From the sequence record OX638288: 64,000 nt of DNA; one strand, 5' to 3'. The stretch is from Escherichia phage UP19. Under the pieces are notes generated by a model. That model had not been told where the DNA came from and did no database searches. It worked only from the letters and a program-made list of their open reading frames with translations. Shown here piece by piece: positions 37,700 to 61,715 of the stretch (the first letter of the stretch is position 1; each line of letters begins with the position of its first letter). Both the position numbers and the translations under genes were made by a program.

Positions 37700-37728
37700 G
37701 TTTACAAGGTCTATAGACATGATACTAT
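37700..37728 (+). promoter_or_regulatory. Early promoter module (GTTTAC, 17 bp, TACTAT)
   Basis: GTTTAC 37700-37705; TACTATAGGCCTATCAA box. Confidence 0.6.
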
Positions 37729-37765
37729 AGGCCTATCAAAACAAACCAACCACATGGAAATCAAA

Positions 37766-37990
37766 ATGAAAACTTATCAAGAATTTATTACAGAAGCTAA
37801 AAAACACGAAGACCAACTGCCGGTTGTTACAAAAACCTTTGACGGTACATTGGCCGATTTTAAAAAAGTCCCTAGTGATAAGCTCGCTAAATTGGCCGGG
37901 AGTATCGGTGAAAAAGATGGCAAGGTCACGTTTTCTGCTCAAGGTACAGCCAATCTTAAAAAACTTTTGAAAGCCGCTGGCGCAGAATAA
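37766..37990 (+). CDS. Internal-protein-like gene (MKTYQEFITE|AK), Lys-rich
   Basis: Capsid-targeting leader at the ATG 37766; the ORF-track start 37754 lacks an SD. Confidence 0.6.
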   Translation: MKTYQEFITEAKKHEDQLPVVTKTFDGTLADFKKVPSDKLAKLAGSIGEKDGKVTFSAQGTANLKKLLKAAGAE

Positions 37991-38267: not shown

Positions 38268-38297
38268 GTTTACAACGGGCTTTAGTGATGATACTAT
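38268..38297 (+). promoter_or_regulatory. Early promoter module
   Basis: GTTTAC 38268-38273; TACTATAGCCCTATCAA box. Confidence 0.6.
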
Positions 38298-38333
38298 AGC
38301 CCTATCAAAACAAATGAGTGATTGGAGAATAAA

Positions 38334-38519
38334 ATGAAACGTTGTGAATTAATTAGAAATGTTACTGCACTGGCCGCCGTTACTGCTTTTGGCTTTAGTA
38401 TGTTTGCAGGATTCATGTTGGATTTGCTTACAACTTCCGAGAATACAATCTCTTTAGTAGTGGCATTCTTAATTGGTTCAATCTCTTTCGTTATGGATAA
38501 AATCTCTAAAGGTGAATAA
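38334..38519 (+). CDS. Small membrane protein
   Basis: ATG 38334 after GGAGA SD; two hydrophobic helices. Confidence 0.45.
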   Translation: MKRCELIRNVTALAAVTAFGFSMFAGFMLDLLTTSENTISLVVAFLIGSISFVMDKISKGE

Positions 38520-40085: not shown

Positions 40086-40159
40086 GGCCCTGTAGCTGGA
40101 CGGTCAAGCGAGCGACTCATAATCGCTGGATGGTGGTTCGATTCCACCCAGGGCCACCA
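40086..40159 (+). tRNA. tRNA with CAT anticodon (Met, or Ile if the first anticodon base is modified)
   Basis: Perfect 7-bp acceptor GGCCCTG/CAGGGCC; anticodon loop CTCATAA; T-arm GGTGG-TTCGATT-CCACC; encoded CCA. Confidence 0.8.
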
Positions 40160-40163
40160 ATTT

Positions 40164-40238
40164 GGATGTGTAGCTCAGCGGTAGAGCAGTTGACTGTTAA
40201 TCAATTGGTCCATGGTTCGAATCCATGCATGTCCGCCA
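40164..40238 (+). tRNA. tRNA-Asn (GTT)
   Basis: D-stem GCTC/GAGC; anticodon loop CTGTTAA; T-loop TTCGAAT; encoded CCA. Confidence 0.8.
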
Positions 40239-40242
40239 AATA

Positions 40243-40318
40243 CGAGGCATAGCTCAGAAGGAAGAGCAACGGTCTTCTAAACCGTAGGTCGTAGGTTCGA
40301 TCCCTACTGTCTCGACCA
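40243..40318 (+). tRNA. tRNA-Arg (TCT)
   Basis: Acceptor CGAGGCA/TGTCTCG; anticodon loop CTTCTAA; T-loop TTCGATC; encoded CCA. Confidence 0.8.
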
Positions 40319-41795: not shown

Positions 41796-41799
41796 TGAA

Positions 41800-41820
41800 A
41801 GGAGACTTCGGTCTCCTTTT
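41800..41820 (+). terminator. Intrinsic terminator
   Basis: AGGAGAC-TTCG-GTCTCCT followed by TTTT. Confidence 0.65.
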
Positions 41821-41854: not shown

Positions 41855-41883
41855 GTTTACACCTCCTTTAAACGTGATACTAT
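41855..41883 (+). promoter_or_regulatory. Early promoter module; spacer CCTCCTT is complementary to the downstream SD AAGGAG
   Basis: GTTTAC 41855-41860; TACTATAGACCTATCAA box. Confidence 0.6.
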
Positions 41884-41918
41884 AGACCTATCAAAACAAC
41901 AGAGTGAAGGAGAGTAAA

Positions 41919-42182
41919 ATGGATAATTATGGTGAATTGTTTAATTTCTTTATGAAATGCGTTCCTGAAGAATTTGGTGCTACAGTAAACGATATTAAAG
42001 TTATAGGTGATGACCATCCTATATTTGAAACTTACGCAGTAATGGGTAATGACGATGGGCAGTGGTATACCGTAAAGGTTGTGGTTAATATGTTTGCTGC
42101 TGAAGGGTACGTTAAATTGTCGACCAAAGTTTATCACGATAATGATTTTGATGCGGAAGATTATTTCAATAATATGAAATAA
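41919..42182 (+). CDS. Hypothetical protein
   Basis: ATG 41919 preceded by AAGGAGAG; the ORF-track start at 41904 is a GTG. Confidence 0.5.
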   Translation: MDNYGELFNFFMKCVPEEFGATVNDIKVIGDDHPIFETYAVMGNDDGQWYTVKVVVNMFAAEGYVKLSTKVYHDNDFDAEDYFNNMK

Positions 42183-42184
42183 TT

Positions 42185-42214
42185 GTTTACAACCCTCAGA
42201 GGACAGGGTATAAT
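42185..42214 (+). promoter_or_regulatory. Early promoter with canonical TATAAT flanked by inverted repeat GAGGACA/TGTCCTC
   Basis: GTTTAC 42185-42190, 17-bp spacer, TATAAT 42209-42214. Confidence 0.6.
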
Positions 42215-42257
42215 GTCCTCATGGATTACAAAATACCAACCAACTGAAGGAAATACT

Positions 42258-42851
42258 ATGAATACTTTAAAGAAAATTGTTGAGTTCATCCGTTCTAAAC
42301 TGGGTACCGCAATGACTCAGAACCTGTCAATTGAAGACCAGTATACTAAAGCTGCTTCTACCCTGATTGATAAAATTACCGAACTTCAGACTGCTCATGT
42401 TAAGTCGGTGAATGAAGAAAAACGCATTCGTGCATTGGCAAATGAAAAAGACCAGCTCGCTGCTTCTAAAGAACGTGAAATTCGTAAACTGATTAAAGAA
42501 GGCGCCGATGTTCAGGTGCATGCTAAACTAGGCCTCCTTTATCGTCGTACCGCTAATCAACTTCGTAAGAAAGCAGACGATTATATCGAAATGCGTAATG
42601 AAATTAAACTGAAGGTCAAGGAACTTGATGACTCTCGTCAAGAACTGGCTGTTAAGCTCGAGTACATCCGTGAAACTCGTAATATGGCTGCCCTTGGTAT
42701 TGCTACTGCCGATGATGTGGTTGAAATCGCTGCACTGACTAAGATTGATATTGAAGATACCCTGCTGCGTGTAGAAACGTTTAAAGGCCCACAAGTTGGA
42801 ATGGATACGACTTCAGCTGATATCGAAGACTACATTAATTCACTTAAGTAA
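42258..42851 (+). CDS. Coiled-coil protein, function unknown
   Basis: ATG 42258 after AAGGAAA; about 197 aa of amphipathic helix. Confidence 0.5.
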
Positions 42852-46880: not shown

Positions 46881-46909
46881 GTATACAAGGTCTATAGGTG
46901 TGATACTAT
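46881..46909 (+). promoter_or_regulatory. Early promoter module (degenerate -35 GTATAC)
   Basis: TACTATAGACCTATCAA box; spacer GGTCTATAG pairs with the -10 region. Confidence 0.5.
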
Positions 46910-46946
46910 AGACCTATCAAAACAACAGAGTGAAATGGAGAATAAA

Positions 46947-47159
46947 ATGAAACTTTCTAACCAAGCAATCAACATGTTAAACGAAGTTCGTGCAGCTGGT
47001 GCTAAATGTCTGATGGTTAACACTCGTGACGGTGACCTTCGTCAAGCATTTGGTGAATTGAAATCTGCTGACCTGGTTAAATGTTCAGTTGGTATCGGTA
47101 ACGCACTTCGTGTATCCTTATCCCCTAAAGGTAAAATGTACTTTTTCAACAAAAAGTAA
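46947..47159 (+). CDS. Hypothetical small protein
   Basis: ATG 46947 after GGAG; the ORF-track start at 46869 precedes the promoter and is TTG. Confidence 0.45.
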   Translation: MKLSNQAINMLNEVRAAGAKCLMVNTRDGDLRQAFGELKSADLVKCSVGIGNALRVSLSPKGKMYFFNKK

Positions 47160-49122: not shown

Positions 49123-49130
49123 TATAAATA
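49123..49130 (+). promoter_or_regulatory. Late promoter TATAAATA for lysozyme e, inside an SD-sequestering hairpin
   Basis: TATAAATA followed by TACCTCCT..AGGAGGTA inverted repeat that pairs the e SD. Confidence 0.6.
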
Positions 49131-49152
49131 CCTCCTATAATCAGGAGGTATT

Positions 49153-49647
49153 ATGGATATTTTTGATATGTTACGTCAAGACGAAGGTCTTGATTTAAAT
49201 CTTTATAAAGACACTGAAGGTTATTGGACTATTGGTATTGGCCAGTTAGTTACCAAGAACCCATCTAAAGATGTTGCTCGTGCCGAACTTGACAAACTTA
49301 TGGGTCGGGTTTGCAATGGACGTATTACTATGGCTGAAGCTGAACAACTCTTTAACCGTTCAGTGGAAAATGCTCGTAGAGCTATAATGCGTAATCCTAA
49401 ATTGAAACCGGTTTATGATGTGCTGGACGAAGTTCGTCGTTGCGCGCTGATTAATATGGTCTTTCAAATGGGTGAAGCTGGTGTCGCTGGATTTACCAAC
49501 TCTCTGCGTATGCTCCAGCAGAAACGTTGGGATGATGCCGCAGTTAACCTGGTGCAGTCCCGTTGGTATAAGCAGACTCCGAATCGCGCTAAGCGAGTTA
49601 TCTCTACATTTAAAACAGGAACTTGGAAAGCATATGAAAACCTATAA
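49153..49647 (+). CDS. e: Endolysin (T4 lysozyme)
   Basis: 164 aa; catalytic E11, D20 and T26 conserved; roughly 70% identity by eye to T4 lysozyme as remembered. Confidence 0.93.
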
Positions 49648-49903
49648 AGAATTTTTGGCCGAATCTCAACTGAACGAAAACACTGACCTAGACCGTATGA
49701 CATTCCTGGCTAAGAAAGGCGGCTTCGAATTTAAAGCCATTAAGAAAGTAAATGGGTATTCTTTTGAAGTCGGTGAATATACCTTTGGTAACAAGGGTGA
49801 TGGCCAGTGGCAAATTGTTAAAAACGGCAAAGAAGTAGACTACCTTTTCGGTAAGAAACTTAGTGACATTGCTAAAATAATGGGCGAATATTCTAAAAAA
49901 TAG
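49634..49903 (+). CDS. Internal-protein-like gene ([10 protein letters not shown]|S)
   Basis: Capsid-targeting leader; ATG 49634 overlaps the 3' end of e. Confidence 0.6.
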
Positions 49904-49931
49904 TTTACATCTCCTGTATGCATGATATTAT
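49903..49931 (+). promoter_or_regulatory. Early promoter module; spacer CTCCTGTA pairs with the denV SD TACAGGAG
   Basis: GTTTAC 49903-49908; TATTATAGACCTATCAA. Confidence 0.6.
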
Positions 49932-49959
49932 AGACCTATCAATTACAGGAGATTACAAA

Positions 49960-50376
49960 ATGACTCGTATCAACCTTACCTTAGTATCTGAATTGGCTGA
50001 CCAACACTTAATGGCTGAATACCGTGAATTACCACGTGTTTTCGGTGCAGTTCGTAAGCATGTTGCTAACGGTAAACGTGTTCGTGATTTTAAAATCAGC
50101 CCTACTTTTATCCTTGGTACAGGCCATGTTACATTCTTTTATGATAAGCTTGAATTTTTACGTAAGCGACAAATTGAGCTTATAGCCGAATGTTTAAAAC
50201 GTGGATTCAATATCAAGGATACTACTGTCCAAGACATTTCCGATATTCCACAGGAATTCCGTGGTGATTATATTCCTCACGAAGCTTCTATCGCTATTTC
50301 ACAAGCCCGTTTGGATGAAAAAATTGCACAGCGTCCTACCTGGTACAAATATTATGGTAAGGCTATTTACGCTTAA
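49960..50376 (+). CDS. denV: Endonuclease V (pyrimidine-dimer DNA glycosylase)
   Basis: [31 protein letters not shown].. appears near-identical to T4 DenV as remembered. Confidence 0.92.
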
Positions 50377-50418
50377 TTAAATCCGTGATAGAATACTTCT
50401 ATCAACTTAAGGAATAAT

Positions 50419-50718
50419 ATGAAAACTTATCAAGAATTTATTACAGAAGCCAAAGCTCCTAAAGCATTCCAAATAGGTGTCCAAGGCACCTTAGACCAAG
50501 AATATGTTGATGCTATTGTAGCAAGCCTCGGTAAACAGGGCGTACAAGTGGATTTGGTTGATTTTACTAAAGGTAATACTTTTAATATTGTTACATCTAA
50601 AGGCTCTTTAGCTAAAGTTAAAAAGGCCTTTGGTGTAGCCCAAGCATACGAAATCGACCACTCTGAATTAGAAAATAAAGGTCGCCAGAATACAATTAAA
50701 GGTTCTGGTTCTTTCTAA
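50419..50718 (+). CDS. Internal-protein-like gene (MKTYQEFITE|AK)
   Basis: Capsid-targeting leader; 99 aa against 100 for T4 IPII. Confidence 0.6.
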   Translation: MKTYQEFITEAKAPKAFQIGVQGTLDQEYVDAIVASLGKQGVQVDLVDFTKGNTFNIVTSKGSLAKVKKAFGVAQAYEIDHSELENKGRQNTIKGSGSF

Positions 50719-50878
50719 TAAAGGCAAGCCGACCCTCTCCTCATGAACGTCGCATCCTCTGAGTGATGGACCTTTCCCTACCTGTAATAAGGTCGAGCCC
50801 AAGTGCGGTAAAGGGTTTACATACGGATACATGGATGAATTATGTGCCAAGGAACGGCCCCACAACTAAGAGACCACT

Positions 50879-51406
50879 ATGAAATTTTTAACTCCCATTT
50901 ATCTAACCTTAATGCACGCCTTCGCTGAACGCGCCATTGAACGTTTAGACTCAGACCAATATACCTGGTACGAACCCACTTCAAGAATGCAAGAGTTTGG
51001 TACTCTTCGACTTGACGGCGGGCGTCAAACAGGTAAAACAAGTGCCCTTGCCCAGTTCGCAGCTGATTGGGTTTCCAAGGGTAATGATGTGATTGTTATG
51101 TCAAGTTCTTCGCATCGCTCACGAGAAATCTGTAATATAATAAAAAGGGTTTCTAAGGCCCAACCACACCTTCAAGTAGAAGGTCCTGGGTTTGTTGTAT
51201 ATGATACCATGCGTTCATTTTTAGACGAAGATAACTTCCATAAGTATCGTGGTCTATCAGTTACTCGATTATTGATTATTATCGAAGAGCCAATGCGCCT
51301 TCCATCGATGGATAAGTTCTATGAAGCTTACCAGGTAATGATTAACAAATTTATGTGCCAGGGTTCTAAACCTCTGCCACTGTTCTTTGTGATAGGAATG
51401 CAATGA
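50879..51406 (+). CDS. Small P-loop NTPase-like protein
   Basis: Walker A-like GGRQTGKTS and Walker B-like LLIIIEE. Confidence 0.45.
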   Translation: MKFLTPIYLTLMHAFAERAIERLDSDQYTWYEPTSRMQEFGTLRLDGGRQTGKTSALAQFAADWVSKGNDVIVMSSSSHRSREICNIIKRVSKAQPHLQVEGPGFVVYDTMRSFLDEDNFHKYRGLSVTRLLIIIEEPMRLPSMDKFYEAYQVMINKFMCQGSKPLPLFFVIGMQ

Positions 51407-51699
51407 TGACTGATGAAGAGCTTTTTGAGTTCTGCTATTTCTCACGTAAGGTTCGAAGAGAGGACCTTACTGCAAATTTCGAATATGCTTATTTCTATCC
51501 ATTAGAATATGTATTCATGACAGGGCCCTTTAAGGGCTCTCGTTTTAGATGTCATGCCCCAAGCATCCGATTAATGAAACAGGTTCCTTACTTCACTCTC
51601 GAGTTCATCTCAGGCCCGTGTAAGGGTATTATTACTCGCAGTCTCTTGACGTATGACCAAGAGATTCATATGATTTCTGACTGGAAAAAATATGTCTAA
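51403..51699 (+). CDS. Hypothetical protein
   Basis: 98-aa ORF overlapping the upstream stop. Confidence 0.45.
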   Translation: MMTDEELFEFCYFSRKVRREDLTANFEYAYFYPLEYVFMTGPFKGSRFRCHAPSIRLMKQVPYFTLEFISGPCKGIITRSLLTYDQEIHMISDWKKYV

Positions 51700-51910
51700 A
51701 TTGACAATTGAAGGCTCTGATGCAGTCCTGAAAAGATTTGTTGAATGGTTTAATGGGCCGGGTGAACAAGACTTTCTGGAAGTCTGGAACGGTGGCCAGT
51801 GGAATGGTAAAGAAATAGTTTACCCGACTACTTATATCTCTGTATGTGGTGGGATCGACGGCCTTCGTTTGGTAGAATATGATATTGCAACAGGTGAGGA
51901 AGTGAAATGA
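51692..51910 (+). CDS. Hypothetical protein
   Basis: 72-aa ORF. Confidence 0.4.
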   Translation: MSKLTIEGSDAVLKRFVEWFNGPGEQDFLEVWNGGQWNGKEIVYPTTYISVCGGIDGLRLVEYDIATGEEVK

Positions 51911-52185
51911 TTGAAGATATCAAAGGTTACAAGCCACATACCGACGATAAAATCGGTAAAGTGAATGCCATTAAAGATGCTGAAGTCCGATTAGGCTTAA
52001 TCTTTAAAGCATTAGAAGAAGAATATGTTGAAGCCTTTACATGCTCAGGTGTTGATAAAATGAGTGATGAAGAATTCAACCTCACCCATGAACGCCTCGC
52101 CCAGATTCGTACGGCAATCGAACGCTTGAAAGAAGCTTCTATGTGGGCGTGTCGTTCCGTTTTCCAGCCCGAGGAAAAATACTAA
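51907..52185 (+). CDS. Hypothetical protein
   Basis: 92-aa ORF. Confidence 0.4.
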   Translation: MIEDIKGYKPHTDDKIGKVNAIKDAEVRLGLIFKALEEEYVEAFTCSGVDKMSDEEFNLTHERLAQIRTAIERLKEASMWACRSVFQPEEKY

Positions 52186-52190
52186 AAGCA

Positions 52191-52219
52191 GTTTACATCT
52201 CCTGTAGACGTGGTACTAT
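52191..52219 (+). promoter_or_regulatory. Early promoter module; spacer CTCCTGTAG pairs with the regB SD CTACAGGAG
   Basis: GTTTAC 52191-52196; TACTATAGACCTATCAA. Confidence 0.65.
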
Positions 52220-52247
52220 AGACCTATCAACTACAGGAGATTACAAA

Positions 52248-52706
52248 ATGTCAGAAATTAATTCAGAAGTATTCATCCGCCGCAACAAATTACGTCGACA
52301 GTTCGAAACCGAATTTCGTGAACTTAACGCGTCCATCAAAAAAGCCGCCATTAAGAGTGGTGTCCCAGCTTTCTTTATTAAGTACTCTAATCACTTGTTG
52401 GACCGTGCTATCCAACGTGAAATTGACGAAAAATATGTTTTCTCTTTGTTCAAGAAGCTCCACAATCATGTTAAAGAAATCCATGAATTTTTAATCCAGG
52501 AGCCTCTTCCTGACGTAGAATCTGAAATTGTCCCGGGTAAAGTGTATCGACCACTGCGTCTCGAGATTACCGATAAAACCTTATGGTTAGGTATGACCGT
52601 AGATCGTAAACATCCTGATAAAGGATATTCATTAAAATGCCGTATGGCATTTGTTAACTCTAAACGTTTAGAAGGTAAAACCAGCACTAAAGTAATCTAT
52701 CTTTAA
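52248..52706 (+). CDS. regB: RegB sequence-specific endoribonuclease
   Basis: ..EVFIRRNKLRR.FE.EFR.. and ..HLLDRAIQREIDE.YVF..LF.. resemble T4 RegB; about 152 aa. Confidence 0.85.
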   Translation: MSEINSEVFIRRNKLRRQFETEFRELNASIKKAAIKSGVPAFFIKYSNHLLDRAIQREIDEKYVFSLFKKLHNHVKEIHEFLIQEPLPDVESEIVPGKVYRPLRLEITDKTLWLGMTVDRKHPDKGYSLKCRMAFVNSKRLEGKTSTKVIYL

Positions 52707-56273: not shown

Positions 56274-56277
56274 TCAA

Positions 56278-56305
56278 AGGTCTCACTTCGGTGGGACCTT
56301 TTTTC
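56278..56305 (+). terminator. Intrinsic terminator
   Basis: AGGTCTCAC-TTCG-GTGGGACCT followed by TTTTTT. Confidence 0.65.
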
Positions 56306-56313
56306 GTTTTAGT

Positions 56314-56342
56314 GTTTACTTCCTCTAGGAACGTGATACTAT
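56314..56342 (+). promoter_or_regulatory. Early promoter module
   Basis: GTTTAC 56314-56319; TACTATAGACCTATCAA. Confidence 0.6.
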
Positions 56343-56370
56343 AGACCTATCAACTAATGAGGAGAACAGT

Positions 56371-60791: not shown

Positions 60792-61133
60792 ATGTTTGAA
60801 CAATTTATTTACAATCTTTATAAAGCAGGTTTGGCCCATCGTAATGCCATGAAACAGTCCGTCGAGGACTATGATAAAGAAGTTATCGACGGATATACTA
60901 ATAGAGTTTATAAAACAGATTGTGAAGAAGGAGACTACAAGAGACTGCTCTTGGCTGCGAAGACTCAGGCCTTAATAAATCTAGACCGTAAGCAGGTAAA
61001 GTTGGCAGGCGACTTCCGAGGTGAACTCTGCGCCATCAGGAATGAATATCGCATTCGTATTGAACATCAACGGAAACCTAATACCCAATCAGCGTGGTTT
61101 AGTGGACATGCCGGTGAAAAAAGTTTCTATTAG
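60792..61133 (+). CDS. Hypothetical protein
   Basis: 113-aa ORF. Confidence 0.45.
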   Translation: MFEQFIYNLYKAGLAHRNAMKQSVEDYDKEVIDGYTNRVYKTDCEEGDYKRLLLAAKTQALINLDRKQVKLAGDFRGELCAIRNEYRIRIEHQRKPNTQSAWFSGHAGEKSFY

Positions 61134-61135
61134 TT

Positions 61136-61164
61136 GTTTACATCTCCAGTAGAAATGATACTAT
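61136..61164 (+). promoter_or_regulatory. Early promoter module; spacer CTCCAGTAG pairs with the SD CTACTGGAG
   Basis: GTTTAC 61136-61141; TACTATAGACCTATCAA. Confidence 0.65.
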
Positions 61165-61190
61165 AGACCTATCAACTACTGGAGGTTATC

Positions 61191-61715
61191 ATGAACGCTA
61201 AAGATATTTTTTCACTGATTAATTTTAACAATGGTAATTTCAAATCTGAAAAACAAAGCAAGTTCTTTAACGACGTTGCTTGTGGTAATGAGATTACCGT
61301 ATCTGGAGGAGAGATTTACAAAAGCCGTTGGAACTGGATTGCTGTCATTGATTCAGTTGGTATTGTAGAGCTCTATAAAAACACTAACAAAAAACGTACT
61401 CTTCACTGGAGTCGTGAAACCAATCAAGCTTATCAAGCTGAACGTAACAAACGTTTAATGCCTACTGAATCTGACCTGGCAAACGTTAAATCAGATATCG
61501 CTTATTTTGATAACTTGATTGCTGAACAACAAGCGGTTATTGATAAGTTTGATGAAATCAAAGCTTGTAAAGAGATTCCTGAATTCATGCGGGAATCAGT
61601 AAACGAACAATACGCCCTCACTTCAGGTCGTATCGAACAGTACAAATCGCAACGAGCTGAACGCCAAGCTCTGCTTCAGAAATTTGAAGAGCGTTTAAAG
61701 ACGGTTCTCGCATAA
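61191..61715 (+). CDS. Hypothetical protein
   Basis: 174-aa ORF. Confidence 0.5.
   Translation: MNAKDIFSLINFNNGNFKSEKQSKFFNDVACGNEITVSGGEIYKSRWNWIAVIDSVGIVELYKNTNKKRTLHWSRETNQAYQAERNKRLMPTESDLANVKSDIAYFDNLIAEQQAVIDKFDEIKACKEIPEFMRESVNEQYALTSGRIEQYKSQRAERQALLQKFEERLKTVLA

Follow-up and report, generated by a model that had tools for sequence, protein, structure and literature searches.

Four early promoters in a 64,000-nucleotide (nt) stretch of the Escherichia phage UP19 genome (OX638288; hereafter, the window) contain a segment complementary to the Shine–Dalgarno (SD) sequence of the gene that they precede: denV, regB, the gene at 61191, which is the ortholog of T4 nrdC.8, and, more weakly, the gene at 41919, the ortholog of T4 e.8. 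RNA that enters these genes from upstream is predicted to fold the SD into a hairpin, whereas RNA that starts at the gene's own promoter would lack the upstream arm and leave the SD open. The anatomy of these promoter cassettes, their thermodynamics, their non-randomness, the covariation of the paired arms and their gene-by-gene conservation support the arrangement directly, and we conclude that it is real, non-random and evolutionarily maintained at the RNA level. Its role is probably to limit the translation of some early genes to RNA made from their own early promoters. By sequence comparison, the window is approximately 96% identical to T4-like coliphages of the JS98/IME281 type; denV and regB are early genes in T4 (PMC3014915).

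The cassettes share one plan, in which a T4-type early promoter (GTTTACA, a 16-nt spacer, TGn and TAYTAT) is followed by a AGACCTATCAA leader, the SD and the ATG. At denV, the −35 region GTTTACA (49903–49909, + strand; T4-type early consensus GTTTAC) runs into a 5′, or anti-SD, arm ATCTCCTGTA (49909–49918, +) that lies in the −35/−10 spacer, approximately 20–29 nt upstream of a predicted start at about 49938. The −10 TATTAT, with a TGn extended −10, occupies 49926–49931 (+), and the 3′ arm TACAGGAGAT (49944–49953, +) forms 10 bp with the 5′ arm and carries the SD GGAG (49948–49951) ahead of the ATG at 49960. The regB cassette has its −35 GTTTACA at 52191–52197 (+), its 5′ arm ATCTCCTGTAG at 52197–52207 (+), its −10 TACTAT at 52214–52219 (+) and a predicted start at about 52226; the 3′ arm CTACAGGAGAT (52231–52241, +), with the SD GGAG at 52236–52239 and the ATG at 52248, makes an 11-nt inverted repeat (11 bp) that is 100% complementary. 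In front of the nrdC.8 ortholog (−35, 61136–61142, +; −10, 61159–61164, +; ATG, 61191), the arms ATCTCCAGTAG (61142–61152, +) and CTACTGGAGGT (61176–61186, including the SD) form an 11-bp helix with one G·U pair and a T>A/A>T compensatory change relative to regB. The e.8 ortholog (−35, 41855–41861, +; −10, 41878–41883, +; ATG, 41919) has a weak 5′ arm, CTCCTTTA (41863–41870, +), opposite TGAAGGAG (41905–41912, including the SD); the core CTCCTT/AAGGAG gives 6 Watson–Crick bp, and the full CTCCTTTA/TGAAGGAG helix 8 bp with one G·U. The repeats thus span 10–11 bp at denV, regB and 61191 and 6–8 bp at 41919. The 5′ arms begin on the final base of the −35 hexamer or 1–2 nt past it and lie 19–30 nt upstream of the start site, which was predicted from −10 spacing and promoter geometry for all UP19 cassettes.

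The first-pass annotation of this DNA had located all four repeats correctly, three of them being longer than it stated, and its placement of the 5′ arm between −35 and −10, upstream of the gene's own start, agrees with promoter geometry and the predicted starts. It had written the fourth repeat as CCTCCTT..AAGGAG; the repeat is there, with the leading C unpaired. A further sequence, AGACCTATCAA(C/A), is common to nearly all cassettes, running from the −10 through the predicted start (for example, 49932–49942, 52220–52230 and 61165–61175), and has a similar T4 counterpart, ACAACTATCAACTAC; it is a conserved discriminator plus initial transcribed sequence.

To compare long (upstream-initiated) with short (predicted-start) RNAs, we used the free-energy cost of forcing open a 12-nt window at the SD in isolated segments of approximately 70–110 nt. 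A first metric, the summed pairing probability between SD and promoter, was dropped as noisy: its null mean was approximately 4.5 of 12, and short RNAs pair weakly anyway. Opening the SD costs 12.4 kcal/mol on the long and 2.3 kcal/mol on the short RNA at denV, 12.8 and 1.8 kcal/mol at regB, 17.1 and 1.8 kcal/mol at nrdC.8 (fold z = −5.9 for the long RNA) and 8.8 and 0.5 kcal/mol at e.8. In all four cassettes the SD is paired on the long RNA in both the minimum-free-energy and the centroid structures, and on the short RNA it is not paired with the promoter arm. As a control, the classical lysozyme hairpin of the same window (gene e; late promoter TATAAATA, 49123–49130, +; arms ATACCTCCT, 49128–49136, and AGGAGGTAT, 49143–49151; ATG, 49153) gave 11.1 kcal/mol on the long RNA and 2.5 kcal/mol on the short RNA from the late start, on a par with the early cassettes. 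The proposal that read-through RNA hides the SD and own-promoter RNA frees it is therefore supported computationally by folding and by the lysozyme control, as it is by the shuffle and swap tests, the covariation and the conservation in T4 described below. Of the approximately 15 early-promoter cassettes that a relaxed scan finds in the window, these four alone reach at least 8 kcal/mol.

Inverted repeats as such are common here: perfect repeats of at least 9 bp with 10–45-nt loops number 20 in the 64 kb, against 10.5 ± 3 expected. Their significance must accordingly lie in placement and not in existence, and generic repeat-finder output was uninformative on placement. When spacers were shuffled with the hexamers kept, the real cost was reached by none of 150 shuffles at denV, regB or 61191 and by 7% at 41919. 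Over the window, 4 of 11 cassettes reach at least 8 kcal/mol where spacer shuffles give 0.45 on average and 2 at most, and swapping promoters among the cassettes gives p = 0.0008. The cassettes at denV, regB and 61191 are near-duplicates (54/60 and 46/52 positions identical, 88–90%), although their genes are unrelated; they are thus not three independent events, and independent evidence has to come from other genomes.

In T4, 11 of 32 predicted early cassettes reach at least 8 kcal/mol against 1.26 expected from shuffles (promoter swapping, p = 5 × 10−5), and the opening costs are bimodally distributed. The sequestered cassettes precede motB.2, modB, mrh.2, nrdC.8, regB, denV, e.8, alt.-3, 30.8, alc and an open reading frame (ORF) in the ndd region. 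All four genes flagged in UP19 thus have sequestered T4 orthologs, and the logic of T4 lysozyme and soc, which the first-pass annotation had extended to four early genes, is found computationally at about a third of T4 early cassettes. The arms differ between the two phages at regB (T4 arms UUCCUCUUGAC/GUUAAGAGGAG, 11 bp with two G·U pairs), nrdC.8 and e.8, the denV cassette being virtually the same; across seven ortholog pairs, whose arms likewise differ except at denV, opening costs nevertheless correlate (r = 0.92). The trna.4 and e.6 cassettes are free of sequestration in both phages. T4 cassettes without the trait usually have a stem flanking only the −10 (dmd, e.7, trna.4, ipI–III), and motA has no stem.

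Two further observations concern these orthologs. UP19 DenV (49960–50376) is 99% identical in amino-acid sequence to the DenV of T4 (L100), compared with only 59% for regB, 68% for nrdC.8 and 85% for e.8, which suggests that the denV module and its cassette were recently exchanged between genus-level lineages. In the window, stems that flank only the −10 and leave the SD untouched occur at 37701–37766, 38269–38334, 42186–42258 and 46882–46947, with sequences such as AGGTCTATAG/CTATAG(G/A)CCT, GGGCT/AGCCC and GAGGACA/TGTCCTC; this architecture is kept at the T4 orthologs trna.4 and e.6, and likewise occurs at T4 dmd, e.7 and ipI–III.

Comparison across T4-like phages, for which denV and regB loci were gathered from viral contigs, extends the pattern. 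Across 29 distinct T4-like denV upstream regions, the long-RNA cost is 7–19 kcal/mol (mean 14.3) and the short-RNA cost 1.8 kcal/mol. At least 15 different denV arm pairs were found, all complementary, among them CTCCTGTAG/CTACAGGAG, TTCCTCCAAG/CTTGGAGGAA, CTCCGTTTG/CAAACGGAG, CTCCTGTG/CACAGGAG, GATGTCTTCC/GGAGGACATC and ATGTCCTCCTA/TAGGAGGACAT. The cost falls to 7.5 kcal/mol in promoter/SD chimeras between phages, and the mean of the real pairs was not attained in any of 50,000 permutations. Two denV architectures are present, with the 5′ arm either in the spacer (−30 to −19) or over the −10 and discriminator (−10 to +1); it is upstream of the predicted start in both, and phages whose DenV proteins are 98–99% identical can differ in which they use. 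A 3′ arm on the SD combined with a 5′ arm upstream of the start holds in approximately 45 distinct helices. The regB SD is sequestered in most lineages (not in L085–087). RNAalifold predicted no pairs on a MAFFT alignment of 22 cassettes, because the arms shift register between families and MAFFT opened a gap inside the 5′ arm; we therefore relied on alignment-free tests, namely own against chimeric promoter/SD combinations and helices identified in each sequence. The trait is absent from the jumbo-phage denV loci. At four of these (L026, L028, L030 and L036; contigs of 346–378 kb), a −35 TTGAC lies inside a terminator-like hairpin, GGGTTGACTTCGGTCAGCCC, that is followed by a T-run just before TATAAT, approximately 60–30 nt upstream of the ATG at 1501, and the SD is not sequestered; this is a different kind of terminator–promoter composite.

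The variety of arms also bears on whether the repeat might act as DNA, as a cruciform or a dimeric-protein site at the promoter, or might be a by-product of pyrimidine-rich spacers facing purine-rich SDs. The repeat does bracket the −10, many other cassettes have stems flanking only that element, and generic spacer/SD complementarity is substantial, chimeras costing approximately 4.5–7.5 kcal/mol. Own promoter/SD pairs nonetheless beat shuffled and swapped ones, the arm sequences vary so freely between phages that no protein-binding sequence is conserved, and the 3′ arm stays with the SD whether the 5′ arm is in the spacer or in the −10 region. Within the helices, moreover, G·T pairs outnumber A·C mismatches by 18–26 to 3–4 across 28–32 distinct helices. 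These counts were redone with symmetric scoring, because the first scheme favoured G·T; for the pairs with G in the 5′ arm and T in the 3′ arm, which selection on the SD confounds least, the ratio is 11 to 1. A strand-symmetric function would not give such an excess, which favours selection on the sense-strand RNA, and we regard a role as DNA or a compositional by-product as extremely improbable.

A more serious alternative is that these are mobile cassettes of the PeSL type, in which the stem-loop terminates or attenuates upstream transcription and serves as a homology patch for recombination, its overlap with the SD being incidental. PeSLs are defined as an early promoter, stem-loop, SD and ATG in variable regions of T4-like phages (PMC2839356, PMC4122927), and several features of the window fit: it holds approximately 15 such cassettes, those of denV, regB and nrdC.8 are nearly the same in front of unrelated genes, and the denV cassette recurs at T4 denV. 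In addition, close relatives do not all have the same gene upstream of denV, and cassette types have been swapped between phages whose DenV proteins are nearly identical. As an intrinsic terminator, however, the hairpin would be poor, since its loop is approximately 25 nt and no U-tract follows the 3′ arm (GGAGAUUACAAAAUG). Neither a terminator nor a homology patch needs a 3′ arm on the SD or a 5′ arm upstream of the start, the combination seen throughout the helices collected here, and homology-driven recombination does not require arms to diverge with pairing kept. We also considered the four sites as intrinsic terminators in their own right and rejected this: none appears in terminator predictions, and the loops of approximately 25 nt are followed by a tail, AUUACAAAAUG, without a U-tract. 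The mobile-cassette reading with an incidental overlap is in our judgement rather unlikely, if a credible minority view. The recombination view itself is complementary to control of translation by the start site: it accounts for the spread of the cassettes and is compatible with that control, the swapping of cassettes being suggestive of recombination and no more.

We propose that each cassette is a σ70-type T4 early promoter with an anti-SD segment upstream of its own start site, formed by the first 9–11 nt of the −35/−10 spacer in UP19 and overlapping the −10 and discriminator in some other phages. RNA initiated upstream would include this segment and form a 10–11-bp hairpin with the SD-bearing 3′ arm across a loop of approximately 25 nt, blocking 30S binding. 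RNA from the gene's own promoter would start between the arms, with a leader of approximately 22–24 nt and an open SD. Translation of denV, regB and nrdC.8 would then be tied to the firing of their own early promoters, and would stop when early promoters are shut off while transcription through the genes goes on. In this scheme we infer where transcription starts, that read-through RNA exists and how translation responds.

Read-through RNA could come from neighbouring early promoters, from middle promoters and, for denV, from the late lysozyme/internal-protein transcript. The + strand order is nudE, e (lysozyme, 49153–49647), an internal-protein ORF (49640–49903), denV (ATG, 49960), a second internal-protein gene (50419–50718), four small ORFs and regB (ATG, 52248). 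The first internal-protein ORF (leader MKTYKEF...), whose start falls within the final codons of e, lacks its own promoter cassette, so late lysozyme transcripts should run into the denV cassette. No terminator-like site was found upstream of the denV, regB or 61191 cassettes, and read-through into the cassettes is plausible on this gene layout. In T4, a 5′ end at the denV promoter has been detected in vivo by primer extension, and the denV SD is accessible, becoming RegB-cleavable after a change in its 3′ context (PMC1702504). Our literature search found no genome-wide T4 start-site data set.

If read-through RNA is made, the hairpin might instead serve translational coupling, with ribosomes that finish the upstream gene melting the 5′ arm and licensing the downstream gene. 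Upstream stop codons do lie near the cassettes (TAG, 49901–49903; TAA, 52183–52185; TAG, 61131–61133), and the 5′ arms begin 5, 11 and 8 nt past them. Given the footprint and helicase position of a terminating ribosome, 5–11 nt is at or beyond its reach, so that at most 0–2 bp would be opened, and where the arm covers the −10 it lies approximately 30 nt or more past the stop. On this general knowledge of the ribosome footprint, the position of the arms argues against coupling, which we consider very unlikely.

A link to the endonuclease RegB had also been proposed by the first-pass annotation, because the sequestered SDs contain GGAG and regB is among the genes. The early SDs that RegB cleaves at GGAG in T4 include that of regB itself; secondary structure inhibits the enzyme, and most middle and all late GGAG-containing transcripts are RegB-resistant (PMC3014915). 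The hairpin might therefore shield intercistronic GGAG motifs on long polycistronic RNAs while promoter-proximal early RNAs are cut. GGAG is indeed present in all four sequestered SDs, which in this respect, and in the inclusion of regB, resemble the RegB/S1 sites of T4 early mRNAs. The motif alone, however, does not make a RegB/S1 site: efficient cleavage needs the 11-nt context GGAGRAYARAA, and a C at position 9 is absent from all cleaved T4 RNAs and has been blamed for the RegB resistance of T4 denV in vivo, a matter of sequence and not of structure (PMC1702504). Three of the four UP19 sites lack this context, and the resistant T4 denV resembles them in the kind of context that it has. The denV and regB SDs (GGAGATTACAA) depart from it at positions 6 (U) and 9 (C) and 61191 at positions 6, 9 and 10, leaving only 41919 close (position 6). 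The hairpin is thus kept at sites that RegB would not cut anyway, whereas cassettes with better contexts, at 38334 (a perfect match) and 2887, are not sequestered. The presence of GGAG stands, its regulatory implication is weak, and we think shielding from RegB improbable as the function of the hairpin. As a separate observation, the UP19 regB context (52236–52246, GGAGATTACAA) has C9, unlike that of T4 regB (GGAGAATAACA); RegB should accordingly cleave it poorly, and the autoregulation of regB seen in T4 may have been lost in UP19.

Several points weigh against start-site-dependent translation as the role of these cassettes, or limit how widely it applies. The folds are those of isolated segments, and ribosomes, S1 or co-transcriptional effects could change the outcome; UP19 start sites derive from −10 spacing, and transcript ends and translation are predicted from sequence. 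The cross-permutation background is high (approximately 4.5 kcal/mol), as any pyrimidine-rich spacer tends to pair with a purine-rich SD, and replication inside the window is weak, its three strongest cassettes being near copies. Selection acting on the SD as such partly confounds the G·U excess. T4 motA and approximately two thirds of T4 early cassettes have no SD sequestration; nrdC.8 is sequestered in T4 and JS98-like phages but not in VR20/25/26-like phages; and e.8 ranges from 3.5 to 9.8 kcal/mol among near-identical relatives and has lost the trait in L115. The trait thus holds up well at denV and regB, depends on lineage at nrdC.8 and is marginal at e.8, so that the fourth site flagged at the outset does hold a repeat, one that is not consistently kept in relatives. 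A broader reading seems to us plausible, though short of probable: that as a general rule in T-even-type phages roughly one early gene in three has an anti-SD inside its own early promoter, so that translatability is set by where transcription starts, and that individual genes keep the trait across genera while the sequences and even the position of the arms turn over.

Other features of the window lie apart from the sequestered cassettes. A strong terminator (UUCG loop and T-run; 56276–56301) stands immediately upstream of the non-sequestered early promoter cassette at 56315, the pair spanning 56276–56343, and a UUCG hairpin at 41798–41819 lies approximately 35 nt upstream of the e.8 promoter; both are composite terminator–promoter arrangements. 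Internal-protein-like genes with the same leader as the ORF at 49640 also start at 37766 and 50419. Downstream of the latter, a 160-nt non-coding gap (50719–50878; 50% G+C, compared with 40% for the window) contains no promoter cassette and has no Rfam match; as a structured RNA it was rejected, its fold (z = −0.64) being no better than those of shuffled sequences. Three adjacent tRNA genes (40086–40315) give the only Rfam matches in the window.

The T4 early-to-middle/late switch is a textbook system in which the shut-off of early proteins is only partly explained by promoter inactivation and RegB. If our reading is right, an anti-SD embedded in the promoter would be a third, purely cis-acting layer of shut-off; on the broader reading, each such cistron would be insulated from upstream transcription, early protein synthesis would be helped to switch off after early promoters fall silent, independently of RegB, and untranslated read-through RNA might be exposed to Rho. 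This would explain how dense, terminator-poor early regions avoid translating early genes from abundant middle and late read-through RNA, and would give part of the PeSL 'stem-loop' component a functional reading. Start-site-dependent translation would also be a compact design principle, usable in synthetic operons.

The class of mechanism is known from late T4 genes, and its use at early genes is apparently unrecorded, although it may have been noticed earlier: our literature search, which did not extend to the Miller 2003 review or to T4 work of the 1980s–90s such as Liebig & Rueger 1989, returned no earlier description of spacer/SD pairing at early promoters. Two reviews from 2010 list only e, soc, 49, I-TevI and homing-endonuclease kin as sequestered cases, and one describes all of them as late genes (PMC2988022, PMC3014915). 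The PeSLs (Arbiol 2010; Comeau 2014) are close in layout, combining an AT-rich upstream region, early promoter, stem-loop, SD and ATG, repeated in variable regions and associated with gene shuffling. The UP19 cassettes likewise have an early promoter with an AT-rich upstream region, SD and ATG in an intergenic setting, a stem-loop at the promoter, and repeated copies near variable genes. In published PeSLs, however, neither arm extends downstream of the promoter: the two are found between the hexamers or over the −10 in RB49/phi1 and just ahead of the promoter in PST/T4, whereas the UP19 3′ arm is the SD. Their stem was read as a terminator or attenuator and a recombination site, and SD pairing goes unmentioned in either paper (PMC2839356, PMC4122927); the words 'ribosome' and 'translation' are absent from the 2010 text (PMC2839356).

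The nearest mechanistic relatives are the T4 hairpins that sequester a ribosome-binding site and enclose a late promoter, at genes e, soc, 49, I-TevI/II/III and segB, together with Aeh1 mobE. As in the e/soc type, in which a hairpin covers the SD or AUG on upstream RNA and the transcript from the inner promoter lacks the 5′ arm, denV, regB, 61191 and 41919 all have a helix over the SD and a predicted start between the arms. Stabilities are alike as well, the early cassettes costing 8.8–17.1 kcal/mol on long and 0.5–2.3 kcal/mol on short RNAs, next to the lysozyme values given above, and the gene e hairpin has been shown experimentally to repress 100-fold (PMC3014915). The promoters set the two apart. 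Those of the e/soc type are late (TATAAATA, gp55), serve late genes and delay expression; at the UP19 cassettes a late promoter and late gene are lacking, and a σ70-type early promoter (GTTTACA-N16-TGnTAYTAT) takes their place, with the 5′ arm in the −35/−10 spacer or, in other phages, over the −10. The predicted effect is the reverse in time: the gene would be expressed in the early window only, and from its own promoter alone.

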